From Balanoglossus misakiensis (lineage: Eukaryota > Animalia > Hemichordata), in NCBI GenBank assembly GCA_040954595.2, contig CM082584.2, positions 6,653,919 through 6,717,918 on the forward strand: a DNA stretch of 64,000 nt, read 5' to 3'. Position numbers and translations under genes: made by a program. The notes beneath the pieces were generated by a model that searched no databases, had not been told where the DNA came from, and saw nothing but the letters and a program-made list of their open reading frames with translations. Every line of letters starts with the position of its first letter. The first letter of the stretch is position 1. Shown one piece after another: positions 54,211-63,447 of the stretch.

Positions 54211-57200
54211 ATGGCCAACGCTAAGTACAAAGATTGGATTCTCGAAACAATCGACTCGCTCCGCAAGCGAAAAGCGCGACCCGACATCGAGCGTATATGC
54301 CACATGGTCAAGCGCAAACATGGAGTAGCGGCCGCTGAAACCGAGGCGGAGTTGGAGCGCTTGGTTGACTCGGAAATCGTCATAAAAGTTGACTACAAAG
54401 GGAGTACAAGTTACCGCAATGCGGCGAAGTGGAGAAAAAGCCACCTTAGCGGCAATGTTCTGAACTCGGCCGAAGCTACGCGCATTCTGAAGAACGCCGT
54501 GAAGAAACTGACCGAGGAAGATGGCCGCAATACGGGTACAGGGATTAGGGAAATTGAAAAGTTTTTGACTGCTCAGGATCACAACACGAGATTCGTGAAG
54601 TCCCATCTGCAAGTAGCACTTCAGAGGGAAGTTGGAGCCGCTAGACTTCTGAGGTTGACAAATGGAAACTACAGCCTATCAAAGGAGAGCGAGTCGCCGA
54701 AAAAGGCCGGTCGCCCTGCCAAGCGGAAGGTAAAAAAACAAGACTTCATTTGGGTTTGAAATACACAACCACGGTTTATTTGCATAGCCGTTGAAATGGA
54801 GCAGCGCTGCGTTTCAGCCCTCTCGCGAGGGCAAGTTTTGTTCAGCGAAAAACTTGCAGCATTTTGTACGCCCTTACATAACCGCGACAGCGGATAACTA
54901 CTAACAACAAACACGGGGTCTTTGTGGCGGTGGCTTGTCTCAGAAACCAAGTAGAGCGACGTGCGTCCGGGAAATCCAGACTGAGAGAAAGAATAGCTGT
55001 ATGTCTGAGCTGCGCAAAAAAAAAGAGACGGCGCGACGAGCGTCAGCCTGGCCGCGTCCGCGTCCGCGCACAACACTGAAATACGCACATACGTGTGGCG
55101 TGAATATATAGTGTTGTAATTTGCATACTACTTTGGGGACAAATTTTCCCGAAGACATTTTTTTGTACATTTAGCGCCGTTCGGAATGACCCCCACTGCT
55201 TGTTTGAAATTTAACTAAAGCGTTAATTTTTGCGCTAGGTTTCATTTCGGGCGATGGGGATTCTATTCAGGTGGAAATCGCCGGCAAAAATTATGCGCCT
55301 CGCGGTTCAAGCCAAGCGAGGATGTGCGCGTATTGTCGATTTGCATGATTCGGTGAAAAGAGCGCAAACGGGTACGGTTTCAGCTCGCCGGAATGATTAA
55401 ATATTCAGCTCGATTCTCACAGGGTAAACGACGGAAGTGGCGTGTCAGGCCATTTCGGAGGCCAGCATGCAATCGCAAGCGAGTACAATTTTCGCGCTGT
55501 TGAACTTGCAGTGGGGGGGGGGGGTGGGGAGAGGGGGAAGAAACGAAAGTGTGAGCGCGTATTAATCGCGCCATCGCAGGTTTCCGTTTTTAATTAGGAT
55601 GTCTATACATTTTCTTTCCTTGCTGGATTTTTTTTACAAATGCATTTGAGTGGAATTTAAATTTATATATTGCAAAACGAAAACGTGAAAGAGTATTTCT
55701 GTTAGATCTTTCACTGGAAATTCATTTTAAAGGCGTCTTGGTCGCCGTCTCCGTAACTATGTGAGGTGATGCGCATGGAGAGAGATTGGTTCGTTTTTTA
55801 TCCGGTTTCTTTATTCCAAGAAAATTCGCGTCGCTTTTCATTTCCGAAATAACAAAAAATGTCAACGTTTTTCAGGTTTTTTTTCCCCAAGGCGGAAAGG
55901 TGAGCGGATGTGAACTTTAAGAATTCAAGAGTCGAGCCTCAGCTCAACACTTGCCGCCTTTGAAAGTGACTCTCGCGTGCGGGTGACCTTGACCCCAAAT
56001 TTAGATCATGTGTTCAGACAGCTCCGTCGAATCAATTAAGACAAGACTACGTGCAAAATTCAATGGCGCCCGATCACCGGAGAAAATTCTAACCCCTGAT
56101 TTATTCGCTGCTTGAAAAAAACAGGCGCGCACACTTTGGGTTTTCCAGTCAAGATTTTTTGGTCGGTTTAATATTTCCTGCTTTACAGAACAATTATCTT
56201 CTGACAGTGGCTTTCTCCTGAAGAAAATAAGGACTTTCACTATCTCTTGTTACCATGGCAACCGCTTAAGGACAAGTAGAGCGACTGACATTTTAAGCTG
56301 GAAAAAATGTCTTTCTTTCATAGCTGCCTTCTGAAAACAAGTCCCCTGCATTCCCTTCAGAATCAGAAGCAAAGTCCAGTACCACCAGATATTAATATAG
56401 CACCGTTTTTAAATTGTTAAAATTGAACTGAGAAGTTGTTTTTTTGGGTTGATAAGATAAGGATTGGATCGAATATATATCACTGTACACTAAAAAATTG
56501 CTTCTAGCAAGATCTCCACTCCTCTGCATACATGTACAGTAACATGTACCTTATGATGTCAGTGACATCATCATTTCTGGTGTGTGCTTATAAGTGATGT
56601 CATCAGATTGTGCACCAGCAAGCAGGGCCAGCCTTTGAGTGATGCCATCAACTATCACTAACAGCATTTTCAAGTCAGCAGAGTCCTATAAATTAGCATG
56701 TGATAAGGGAGGGTAAATAACAGTATGCAGTTACAAAATTTTGTTTTGCATCAAAATATTACCTTTTTCCGGATATATCACGTTCAGTGAGTACCATACC
56801 AAAAAAGTGAAATTACCAACGTTATTTACTATATAGCAGTTTCTAATTCTCTCATAAGAGTGACTTGATTGGAGTTAGGAAAATTTTCCAGTTTAGGGTG
56901 TTTGGAGTCAATTTCCCCCATTTGAAAAGATGAAATGGAAGATTATATTCTCTTGTTTCAGCAAAAAATAAAAACAAAATTGAGTTAGGGTCACTTTCCA
57001 GTCAATGCTTGTCAACATGGTCATTGGGAGTCAAAAGTTGCTGGTTGGGTCAAAGGTCGTTGATAGACATGGTCTTTTTAACTGTTGACTGTTATTGGGT
57101 TAAGAGGTGCTCATAAAATGGCCAGTGAATAATAAAATTCTTTTAAAATGTAACCGTAGCATCACAAACATTACAGTTTTCAAGATGAGCTAGCTTGTAC

Positions 57201-60200
57201 TATGACTTGCCCATTCCAGCTAACCCCCACCTCCCACCCATGTTAGTGGATTCACCCATGATGAGGAAACTACAGGGCTGAACCAATATGTAGTGAAAAG
57301 GTGTACACATGTATTTGAGTCTGTACAATTTCAGTCATTGCCACTGGTAGGGTATATATTATTGTGTACTACTACTACTACTAGTAGTTCATTGAGGTCA
57401 GAGTTGAAAGGTCACTTCCTGTAGAGTGACCTTTCAATCTTGCCATTGGATCTGGACTGCTTTTAATGAAGGTGTGATTTTCAGAGGTACGTGCGTCCAT
57501 CAGTGAATCCTAACAGTAACATTAGTCGATTCATTTAATTTACACCCCTCCCGGCTAGACCAAATTCCTTAGGTGTGGTTTTTAGGACGAGTATAATCAA
57601 AAATTCTCACATGTTTATATTGTGCACATCATAACAGTGGAGGCAATAGATATATCTTACGTTTTATGAATGACCGATAGAAATGGGTCCTTAATTTCAT
57701 GAATGTTTTCAGCACAAGTTGTCCAGTATTTTGGGGCAGTACACCAGGGAATGTTACCGGGGTTCCCCTGTCAATTTATCAGGGTTTCCTTTGGTAGACC
57801 AGTGCAGTCACTGTAACCCAGGCTTTGTACCCTGACCCCTGGTGACCTATGACCTCATTTGGAAGTTTCCTTCCAAGTCGGTCTCCAAGGGTATAACAGA
57901 AGTGTTACCAGGGTTTCCCAAATCATTGGCTACTGTTCCCCAACCTTAGCAGAAAACACCGGTTGCGTGACAGATCATCAGATTGTCTGCAAATTTTCAA
58001 TCTGGTTAAAATGAAATGTAGGATTGACTCACTATCTTTACATTTCGCTGGTTCGCCGTATCCGAGAACAGAACAGCAAAGAAATGTAAAAACCAAGCCA
58101 ACCTTACATCTGATTTTAATCAGAGAGCAAATTTCCACCACATCTAACAGAAGTTTTCCTAATAATGCATTGAAAAACATACTGTGCGGTGTAGCAGTTA
58201 AGTTACCAAGAACAATTTCATTTTCCGTCAGCTCAGAAGTTTTGCTGGAAAAATCCTTTATACATTTAAGAGTAAAAAATAGCGCGGTAGTGCTGTTTTG
58301 GCTGAGGCCGTAAATGGTGCTTGTTATTGTTTGACCTTCACCTGACAGCTCCTGTTCATTTTGGCCAGAAATGCGATCCACGTTATATAATGAGCATTTG
58401 TAATGGTAGCCTCACTAATAGAAGTTGGTCAATAAATGAAAACCCCAGTGTCAATGTCACTGGGCTGCTTGGTGACTACTTCAGTGGTGGCTTGTTTACT
58501 CGCTTTGACATTTTAGCCAATTCCGCTGCTTTAAAGGGGGAATCTGTCTTGTTCATGCAAACGTTGGCTACTGCTTGTGCCAGGTTTGACTATGGTTCAA
58601 ACAGTGTTTCATAGAAATTAAAAAACACAGTGAGCTTCCTATCACACATGGTAGTTCAACAGAACTTGGTCGTGCTGGTTTTAAGACGGGTGTACGCGTA
58701 AGGACAGATTCCAATTGCATGAAATTATCAGTGTTTTGTTGCTGTTTTGGAATTCGTGGGTTTATTTTTCTTCGCTGTATGCAGTTTATGACTTGACAGA
58801 CGTAGGTTTGTATGGGGAATGTTGACAACGAAATTCCATGCACACCCACCCACACAGGGAATTTGAGTTGTTTGGGGTCTTATCCAGTGCATAACTGTAT
58901 GAAACGCAAACAAGCGTTATGCAAGGAGAAACAAAAGACCAGCCTTTGCCCAGTAATTGAGCTTTTGTTTTCAACCTTATTAACAATTCATGCCCTCCCC
59001 CTCCCTGTGGATACACTCAACTTTAATTATGGGTCACCCCCCAAAAAAGTCAATATCCCTGTCACGAGGAAGGGTTTTCAGAAACTAGGAAAAACGTACA
59101 ACACTTTGACCTGGAGAATATTTGATAAGAAACCCTACAAGACCTTTGGATTGTCCTGTTTTGTTATTGCGGGACCACACCACTGTTTTGGAGGGGGGGG
59201 GGGTATTGTGGGGGTATTGTCTGGCATTAAATTACTGAAGAAGTAAATGGCACATATTCATCTAGCCAGCCGTTCAAATGTACTACCGTATATGTAAAGT
59301 ACATATGACCCTTTTCTGTGCTGAATACATGTATTTCAGACATTACTATAACCATGACAACAGTATTTCTTGCAAACGTGCATTTCAAAAGTGATTTTGA
59401 TCCCTGCGAACTACTGTTTTCTAGAGCAGATTATAGGAGAGCATGCTGTTCAGTTGTCGATCATTAGTGGAATTCAGAAACAATAGCAAATCCAAAATTT
59501 AAGACCTGACTCACACTACTTGCATTTGTTATGCAAATAAGTGTCTGCTTTTCTAAGGGTGCATGTTCTCTAGTGTCAGTAAAGTTTAACTGTATTTTTC
59601 ATCCATTCTTGATGTTTTGCACGTCATATTATGGTGTGTATTCCTGGGTCTATCCAAAAATGATAATTTTTTATGTAGTATAATTTGAGCAAGGGTACTA
59701 TTATTCAGGTTAATTAAATGATGAATAATAGGAGTCTGAGAAGGATTCAAGATCAACTTTGAGACCCAGTTCGGACAGTGCCCATGCAAGTATTAGCACG
59801 CCCACTTCCTAATTTCTGGATTTTTTTTTATATCCTTGCGCAGCGAATCAAGAAGACACATGGCCCAGAATTCGAACAAGAGCCTCTGTCGAAGCCAAAC
59901 TCCAAGGAGGCCGAGGAGGACGACGACGACATGGACACAAAGTGCGACTACTGCCTGCTGACGGCCGAGTGCAACCGGTCGGGTGACAGCGAGGAGTTGC
60001 TCATTTGCAAAGACTGCAATGCCAAAGGTGAGGGAACGATGCACAAACAAACAAACCAAAACAGTGGTTGCCCTGGCAACAGAAGGCATCCATCTTTTGC
60101 GCTTCCTGTTGGCAGTTCAGTTCACAAGAAAATGGAGGCTTAAGAACTCGATGGCAGACGACAATTAAAGGGGGGGGGGCAGTCTTAGCTGAGTGATTTG

Positions 60201-63200: not shown

Positions 63201-63447
63201 GCTGCAAGAATTTCTTTGCCCTTTCTAGTATTACAAGGCGTGACAAGAAGATAGTGCATTTCATTAGTCATGTGACTAAATTGCGTGTTCTCTGTTTCGA
63301 CAGGAAATCGACGGCAAGTCCCTGCTCCTCCTCAAGAGAAGCGACGTCCTCACGGGACTCTCCCTGAAGCTGGGACCGGCACTGAAGATTTACAACTTTG
63401 TGAAGAAGCTGCAGACACTGAACCAGCCGCCGTCAATCTTCACGTGA
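54211..63447 (+). CDS. SAMD1: SAMD1/atherin-like chromatin protein: winged helix + H15-like domain + double PHD (DPF) + acidic tract + SAM domain; ~578 aa
   Basis: Exons 54211-54729, 59844-60027, 60323-60435, 60766-60847, 61419-61544, 61995-62382, 62787-62967, 63304-63447 (1737 nt, in frame, GT-AG). [154 protein letters not shown]. The symbol rests on the WH+SAM match; the architecture differs from vertebrate SAMD1. Confidence 0.85.

Follow-up and report, generated by a model that had tools for sequence, protein, structure and literature searches.

Does an animal gene that begins like the histone acetyltransferases KAT6A and KAT6B (MOZ/MORF) and ends like the vertebrate repressor SAMD1 represent a truncated enzyme, an error of gene prediction or a member of a family of its own? 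We addressed this question in a 64,000-nucleotide stretch of the acorn worm Balanoglossus misakiensis genome (GenBank assembly GCA_040954595.2, contig CM082584.2, positions 6,653,919 to 6,717,918 of the forward strand), hereafter the window. An initial annotation, made from the sequence without database searches, had reported at positions 54,211 to 63,447 one in-frame reading frame of 8 exons encoding 2 winged helix (WH) domains, a double PHD finger (DPF) and a SAM domain. The gene belongs to a known repressor family, of which it is a full-length variant, and we consider it probable, jointly with the repressor mechanism proposed below, that it is an ancestral-type orthologue of vertebrate SAMD1/SAMD13 and of the Drosophila protein Lint-O.

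A non-enzymatic protein of four modules

Splicing of the window sequence joined 8 exons across 7 introns, all of them GT-AG and in phase, into a 1737-nt frame with a single terminal stop, confirming the reading frame originally reported. The encoded protein of 578 aa is laid out as WH1-WH2-double PHD-acidic linker-SAM and is non-enzymatic. It shares its architecture with Ptychodera flava XP_070562516 (474 of 522 aligned residues identical, 90.8%) and with the proteins of Glandiceps (83.2% identity) and Saccoglossus (77.5%). When individual exons were compared with Pfam, exon 1 matched SAMD1_WH (E 2e-31) and Linker_histone (E 6e-5) and exon 4 gave a PHD match; the scores of exon 1 with SAMD1_SHD (24.5 bits; cut-off of 27) and of exon 8 with SAM_1 (21.2 bits; cut-off of 23) were subthreshold.

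The gene had been described as devoid of an acetyltransferase, and this proved correct. In tblastn searches across the whole 64 kb, 5 MYST-bearing proteins matched the WH and DPF exons only, with the best match from MYST residues (E 0.58) located outside the gene, and Pfam likewise detected no MYST domain in the orthologue from P. flava. The 3 introns after the DPF are 450, 404 and 336 nt long, as previously given. The linker ahead of the SAM domain contains an acidic tract in which 53 of 79 residues are aspartate or glutamate. Across the entire linker, these residues account for 78 of 194 positions, versus 40 of 141 in P. flava and 26 of 116 in Glandiceps, the tract being expanded in B. misakiensis.

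The first winged helix and the SAM domain are of SAMD1 type

WH1 matched the human SAMD1 WH domain with an E value of 2e-25, compared with 8e-11 for KAT6A WH1, and its predicted fold superimposed on the SAMD1 domain with a root-mean-square deviation of 0.7-0.8 Å (Z 14.7 versus 13.5 for KAT6A). SAMD1 contacts DNA through R43, R45, K46, R48, R56, Y87, K88 and R94 (PMC8115922), 7 of which are identical in the acorn worm domain; R56 is replaced by His, a residue also present at this position in 114 of 231 family domains. R45 is retained in 229 of the 231 distinct family WH1 domains and is Gln in all 5 MYST proteins. Binding of unmethylated CpG by WH1 is thus likely by analogy with SAMD1, its residue conservation supporting this half of the dual reading of CpG and H3 acylation initially attributed to the protein.

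WH2 is predicted to adopt a winged helix fold (Z 9.4 against linker histone H1), but at the sequence level it matches KAT6B WH2 weakly (E 0.94). Pfam, profiles and predicted folds together identify a WH1-WH2-DPF N-terminal block of the KAT6 type. In KAT6 itself, WH1 is a CpG reader related to the SAMD1 WH domain and WH2 is a non-specific domain that binds the dyad (PMC9881136, PMC9908889).

The SAM domain of the Glandiceps orthologue scored 84 bits on the SAM domain of SAMD1 versus 46 on Scm and 38 on L3MBTL3. In the window protein, 13 of 14 self-association residues of SAMD1 (list in PMC8115922) and 6 of 7 L3MBTL3-contact residues (list in PMC11969672) are identical, the remaining residue of each set being a conservative replacement, and the mid-loop/end-helix (ML/EH) interface is identical at 13 of 15 positions and conservative at 2. 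The earlier proposal that repressors are recruited through the SAM domain is therefore well supported by the conservation of contact residues, and we regard such recruitment as likely by analogy with the human protein.

An altered acyl-lysine pocket in the double PHD finger

The DPF is complete, with all zinc ligands present, and its closest solved structure is the DPF of KAT6A/MOZ (E 1e-31, 48% identity). In the pocket for H3 R2/K4, the equivalents of MOZ C281, D282 and D285 are identical, E261 is replaced by Asp and N274 by Ser. The comparison across the family used 213 distinct DPFs in which the histidine was aligned, 5 of the 218 being set aside; D282 and D285 are kept in 148 and 160 of them, respectively. 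The acyl pocket (residue list in PMC7797077) is different. G237, the most important acyl-pocket residue in MOZ and Gly in all 6 human DPFs (PMC7800603, PMC5200937), corresponds to Ala, and N235 is replaced by Ala, L242 by Met and I260 by Phe. Among the 213 family DPFs, the G237 position is Ala in 154, Val in 41, Ile in 6 and Gly in 3. Because the pocket glycine is Ala here and so rarely retained in the family, reading of acyl-H3K14, the second half of the dual reading proposed initially, is doubtful, and we infer that the DPF would bind the H3 tail with its acyl preference weakened or lost.

The best surviving alternative is that the DPF reads acylated H3K14 like MOZ and that the protein shares active CpG promoters with KAT6 and competes with it. 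The closeness of the complete DPF to that of KAT6A is in keeping with this possibility, as are the retained equivalents of W257 and C259 and the Asp at the S210 position, which is also found in DPF1-3. Moreover, Ala is small and occupies the G237 position in 4 of 6 distinct DPFs of MYST proteins (unnamed KAT6-like records), which limits the weight of this substitution. Nevertheless, 4 pocket positions are changed at once, Val (41 family DPFs) is far commoner than Gly (3) at the decisive one, and the WH1 contacts are those of SAMD1 and not of KAT6, so that we judge a KAT6 antagonist of this kind unlikely.

As a separate observation, the MYST-bearing KAT6-like records P0214, P0219 and P0224 have Ala at the G237 position, and some KAT6 enzymes may lack a canonical acyl pocket.

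A family extending from cnidarians to vertebrates

Homologues were collected using exon 1, the Glandiceps orthologue and an insect profile as queries, with the best 120-150 matches retained per search, yielding 369 proteins. Profiles built from the family detected WH1, DPF and SAM in 195 of the 369 proteins, from cnidarians to insects, and WH2 as well in 163 of these 195; many of the other proteins are fragments. Among the sources of named members are corals, a jellyfish, molluscs, annelids, a brachiopod, a nemertean and a trematode, as well as a tardigrade, chelicerates, a centipede, insects, echinoderms, hemichordates and amphioxus, and most are labelled KAT6A/B-like in databases. The four-module design is not peculiar to B. 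misakiensis, and the locus is an ordinary member of a family with hundreds of database proteins. The family is also not undescribed in invertebrates, as had been thought possible: fly Lint-O has been published as a co-repressor of L(3)mbt, although the WH portion is missing in dipterans.

The search for long relatives yielded 14 proteins, 5 with a MYST domain and none a named bilaterian KAT6. The jellyfish Sanderia possesses both a gene of the four-module type and a MYST-bearing KAT6; therefore, the family and KAT6 were already distinct before the cnidarian-bilaterian split. Sharing of the WH1-WH2-DPF block with KAT6 is best explained by a duplication predating that split.

These data also bear on the notion, implied by the database names, that the protein corresponds to the reader portion of a KAT6 that has been truncated or split, and acts as a co-activator with MYST supplied in trans. 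Many records are named KAT6A/B-like and the order WH1-WH2-DPF equals that of KAT6, but the C-terminus is a SAMD1-type SAM domain, SAM and MYST occur together in none of the 369 proteins among the matches listed, a complete KAT6 coexists with the four-module gene in Sanderia and both studied relatives repress, all of which makes this explanation improbable. An artefact joining 2 neighbouring genes or misassembled segments is scarcely credible given the in-phase GT-AG introns and the presence of WH1, DPF and SAM in one chain in 3 hemichordate RefSeq models and in the 195 proteins, even though the model derives from genomic sequence alone, intron 1 is long and P. flava also has a WH-less isoform.

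Phylogenetic relationships

For phylogenetic analysis, WH1, DPF and SAM were concatenated (41 rows, mixture model); WH2 was left out because it aligned poorly in KAT6. The concatenated tree separated KAT6 from the family with a Shimodaira-Hasegawa-like approximate likelihood ratio test (SH-aLRT) value of 99, placed vertebrate SAMD1/SAMD13 with the deuterostome members (83) and grouped dipterans with other insects (96). Separate domain trees, the comparison envisaged in the initial annotation, recovered the same division from KAT6 (100/99 on WH1, 99/97 on DPF). The domain matches, diagnostic residues and trees thus support the earlier suggestion of an ancestral-type SAMD1 that shares its WH1-WH2-DPF order with KAT6.

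Probable complementary losses in vertebrates and flies

Shark "SAMD13" and lungfish and salmonid SAMD1 consist of WH1, SAMD1_SHD and SAM and contain no PHD finger. The family WH2 profile matches the region of these vertebrate proteins that Pfam calls SAMD1_SHD, which indicates that SAMD1_SHD is WH2 and that this domain was not lost across all vertebrates. Hence, of the 2 vertebrate losses postulated previously, that of the DPF stands and that of the H15-like domain does not hold for vertebrates as a whole. Among insects, WH1 is retained in the bee proteins that bear the name "L(3)mbt interactor in ovarian somatic cells" (Lint-O), and all 4 named dipterans (Cochliomyia, Rhagoletis, Eupeodes and Wyeomyia) have PHD-PHD-SAM only, without WH1 and WH2. 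The protein of the blowfly Cochliomyia bears the same NCBI Lint-O name as the bee proteins, its SAM domain has SAMD1 as its best solved match (54.5 bits), and a linker motif common to 55 proteins ties the WH-bearing and WH-less insect-type forms. The best explanation is that the DPF disappeared in jawed vertebrates, and WH1 and WH2 in dipterans. A 446-aa match, equal in length to fly Lint-O, was rejected as Lint-O and proved to be a mosquito protein.

A strict link between loss of the WH domains and loss of DNA methylation was also considered and is not shown by these data: Paragonimus keeps WH1 although flatworms are not known to have DNMT1/3, and a psyllid record lacks it. Flies are not known to have CpG methylation.

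Lint-O (CG2662) has 2 PHD fingers and a SAM domain through which it binds L(3)mbt, and is needed for repression of vasa and aub; mutants are sterile and develop brain tumours (PMC9535798). In a fly proteomics preprint, CG2662 was found with Sfmbt and l(3)mbt. Both Lint-O and human SAMD1 bind L(3)mbt-type proteins via SAM and both repress (PMC9535798, PMC11969672). SAMD13 is noted as a BLAST orthologue of Lint-O, an orthology doubted by the authors of that work, and the accessible text names no WH domain and does not mention SAMD1 (PMC9535798); that of PMC8175269 holds no information on evolution.

Proposed mechanism

We propose that the protein is a non-catalytic chromatin adaptor. WH1 would likely anchor it on unmethylated CpG, as in SAMD1. 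WH2 may grip the nucleosome at the dyad, by analogy with human KAT6, and the DPF may read the unmodified tip of H3 (R2/K4) with reduced or lost preference for acylated K14; these are the weakest steps. The SAM domain would self-associate and dock L(3)mbt/L3MBTL repressors through SAM-SAM contacts, and target promoters would be dampened through the recruited repressors. This model starts from what the locus displays directly, namely, gene structure, absence of MYST, family membership and conserved SAMD1 DNA- and SAM-contact residues, and would carry over CpG binding, L3MBTL binding and repression from the human and fly relatives. Taken as a whole, we think it a probable account.

Several points weigh against it. 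The concatenated tree came from a quick search, and the trees rest on 244 columns and include neither a SAM, d4 or PHF10 outgroup nor a KAT6 from a bilaterian. Approximately unbiased (AU) tests did not reject placement of vertebrates or dipterans beside KAT6 (p 0.09, 0.30, 0.41 and 0.41), so that the branch order within the family is tentative. D. melanogaster Lint-O itself is not in the sequence set, the dipteran comparison being made with the other named dipterans, and the blowfly SAM domain scores 47.7 bits on L3MBTL3, just below its SAMD1 score. When 8 PHD cysteines of fly Lint-O were mutated, repression persisted (PMC9535798). Finally, the Samd1 of zebrafish, in which the mammalian Pro/Ala region is missing, showed poor binding to mammalian chromatin and no fibre formation (PMC11969672); mammalian behaviour may therefore not carry over to the acorn worm protein, and long SAM fibres are not to be assumed.

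More tentatively, a matched pair may have arisen from one early-animal WH1-WH2-DPF head, giving an activator (KAT6) and a repressor (the SAMD1/Lint-O family), both acting at unmethylated CpG promoters. The repressor DPF would have been retuned to unacylated H3, with K14 acylation switching one protein for the other. Human SAMD1, which kept the CpG reader, and fly Lint-O, which kept the histone reader, would then be complementary halves, and SAMD1-L3MBTL3 and Lint-O-L(3)mbt one conserved complex. Were this possibility, which we rate below an even chance, to hold, the brain-tumour and germline-gene phenotypes of flies would become a model for SAMD1/SAMD13.

Features of the locus and neighbouring genes

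The coordinates of the gene and of its CpG-rich 5' region are listed in Table 1. The observed/expected (o/e) CpG pattern is what would be expected of an unmethylated promoter followed by a methylated gene body, and would fit a single transcription unit in a genome with mosaic methylation. For a comparison of intron sites, the literature was searched for the splice positions of KAT6A and yielded nothing useful; the DPF exons of KAT6A and DPF2 are presumably of similar size (116/113 and 82 nt).

Table 1. Features of the four-module gene in window coordinates
Feature	Position	Strand	Content
Exon 1	54211..54729	+	aa 1-173: WH1 (~54217-54438), WH2/H15-like (~54460-54684), basic tail
Intron 1	54730..59843	+	5114 nt
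Exon 2	59844..60027	+	Basic linker motif, first part of PHD1; exon ends within the codon equivalent to MOZ G237 (Ala here)
Exon 3	60323..60435	+	113 nt; end of PHD1, start of PHD2
Exon 4	60766..60847	+	82 nt; PHD2 core, acidic residues equivalent to MOZ D282/D285
Exon 5	61419..61544	+	End of PHD2, start of disordered linker
Exon 6	61995..62382	+	Disordered linker with acidic tract (~62123-62359)
Exon 7	62787..62967	+	End of linker, first half of SAM (from ~62887)
Exon 8	63304..63447	+	Second half of SAM with self- and L3MBTL-contact residues, stop codon
CpG-rich 5' region, then CpG-depleted gene body	53000..56100	.	CpG o/e 1.2-1.4 versus 0.42-0.55

Variation was seen at the N-terminus of the family. 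P. flava RefSeq isoform X2 has an alternative N-terminus, starts at exon 2 without both WH domains and resembles the dipteran form; no counterpart of the first exon of this isoform was found in the window. In 3 family proteins (P0188, P0295 and P0300; Pfam THAP for P0188), a THAP-like zinc finger replaces WH1-WH2, and no THAP exon was found in the window, intron 1 included. Ahead of the SAM domain, 56 of 170 family proteins carry a motif of the type L-P/L-T-P-x-x-S-P in strict or loose form, including fish SAMD1, shark SAMD13 and the proteins of Glandiceps, Saccoglossus and P. flava; the motif is degenerate in the window protein (61995-62050). We take it to resemble an FBXW7 phosphodegron.

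Elsewhere in the window, at least 4 C-type lectin domain exons lie on both strands at 36053-46703 (Pfam Lectin_C, E 1e-6 to 1e-11), forming a small lectin cluster. Exons of a WD40-like gene are located on the minus strand at ~18600-24000; Pfam gave no clear family for the single exons tested, and the gene may be of the KCTD3/SHKBP1 type. Human SAMD1 and SAMD13 presumably lie near a gene for a protein kinase A catalytic subunit, and no such gene was seen among the window reading frames inspected (part of the list).

Significance and comparison with known systems

Within the literature searched, the four-module architecture appears to be unpublished, as do the link between SAMD1 and Lint-O, the complementary losses and the change in the DPF pocket; the link, the losses and the pocket are directly testable. 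The novelty of the architecture and of the link may be affected by the supplementary trees and alignments across species in PMC9881136 and PMC11969672. The acorn worm gene joins 2 literatures without mutual citation in the papers searched, those of SAMD1 as a CpG-island repressor and L3MBTL3 partner and of Lint-O, whose human orthologue was left open by its discoverers. Judging from sequence, an unmethylated-CpG reader linked to a repressor would predate vertebrate CpG islands. Many invertebrate records named KAT6A/B-like do not represent acetyltransferases, and counts of MYST enzymes are affected accordingly. A DPF without the pocket glycine allows the gain or loss of acyl-lysine reading to be tested directly.

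With DPF1-3 (d4) and PHF10, the acorn worm protein shares the double PHD finger fold at ~40% identity; unlike them, it has WH and SAM domains and no pocket glycine, and a requiem/SAY region was not detected by Pfam. KAT6A/KAT6B and Enok have the same WH1-WH2-DPF order and a DPF ~48% identical in the case of MOZ, whereas the acorn worm protein has SAM in the place of MYST and a DPF without the pocket glycine, and its WH1 has Arg and Tyr where KAT6 WH1 has Gln and Asn/Ser. Drosophila Lint-O likewise combines 2 PHD fingers with a C-terminal SAM domain of the same type, and trees and NCBI insect naming place both in one family, but the named dipteran members lack WH1/WH2 and have strongly diverged PHD fingers. 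Vertebrate SAMD1/SAMD13 differ in lacking the complete double PHD finger that stands between WH2 and SAM in the acorn worm, and mammalian SAMD1 further in that the acorn worm WH2 directly follows WH1 and an acidic linker takes the place of the mammalian Pro/Ala-rich region. Yet SAMD1 (atherin; PDB 6LUI, 6LUJ and 8Y77) and SAMD13 share with the acorn worm protein a SAMD1-type WH1 with CpG and minor-groove contacts, a SAM domain with self- and L3MBTL3-contact residues and a chain with no enzyme, and the shark, lungfish and teleost forms share WH2 as well.

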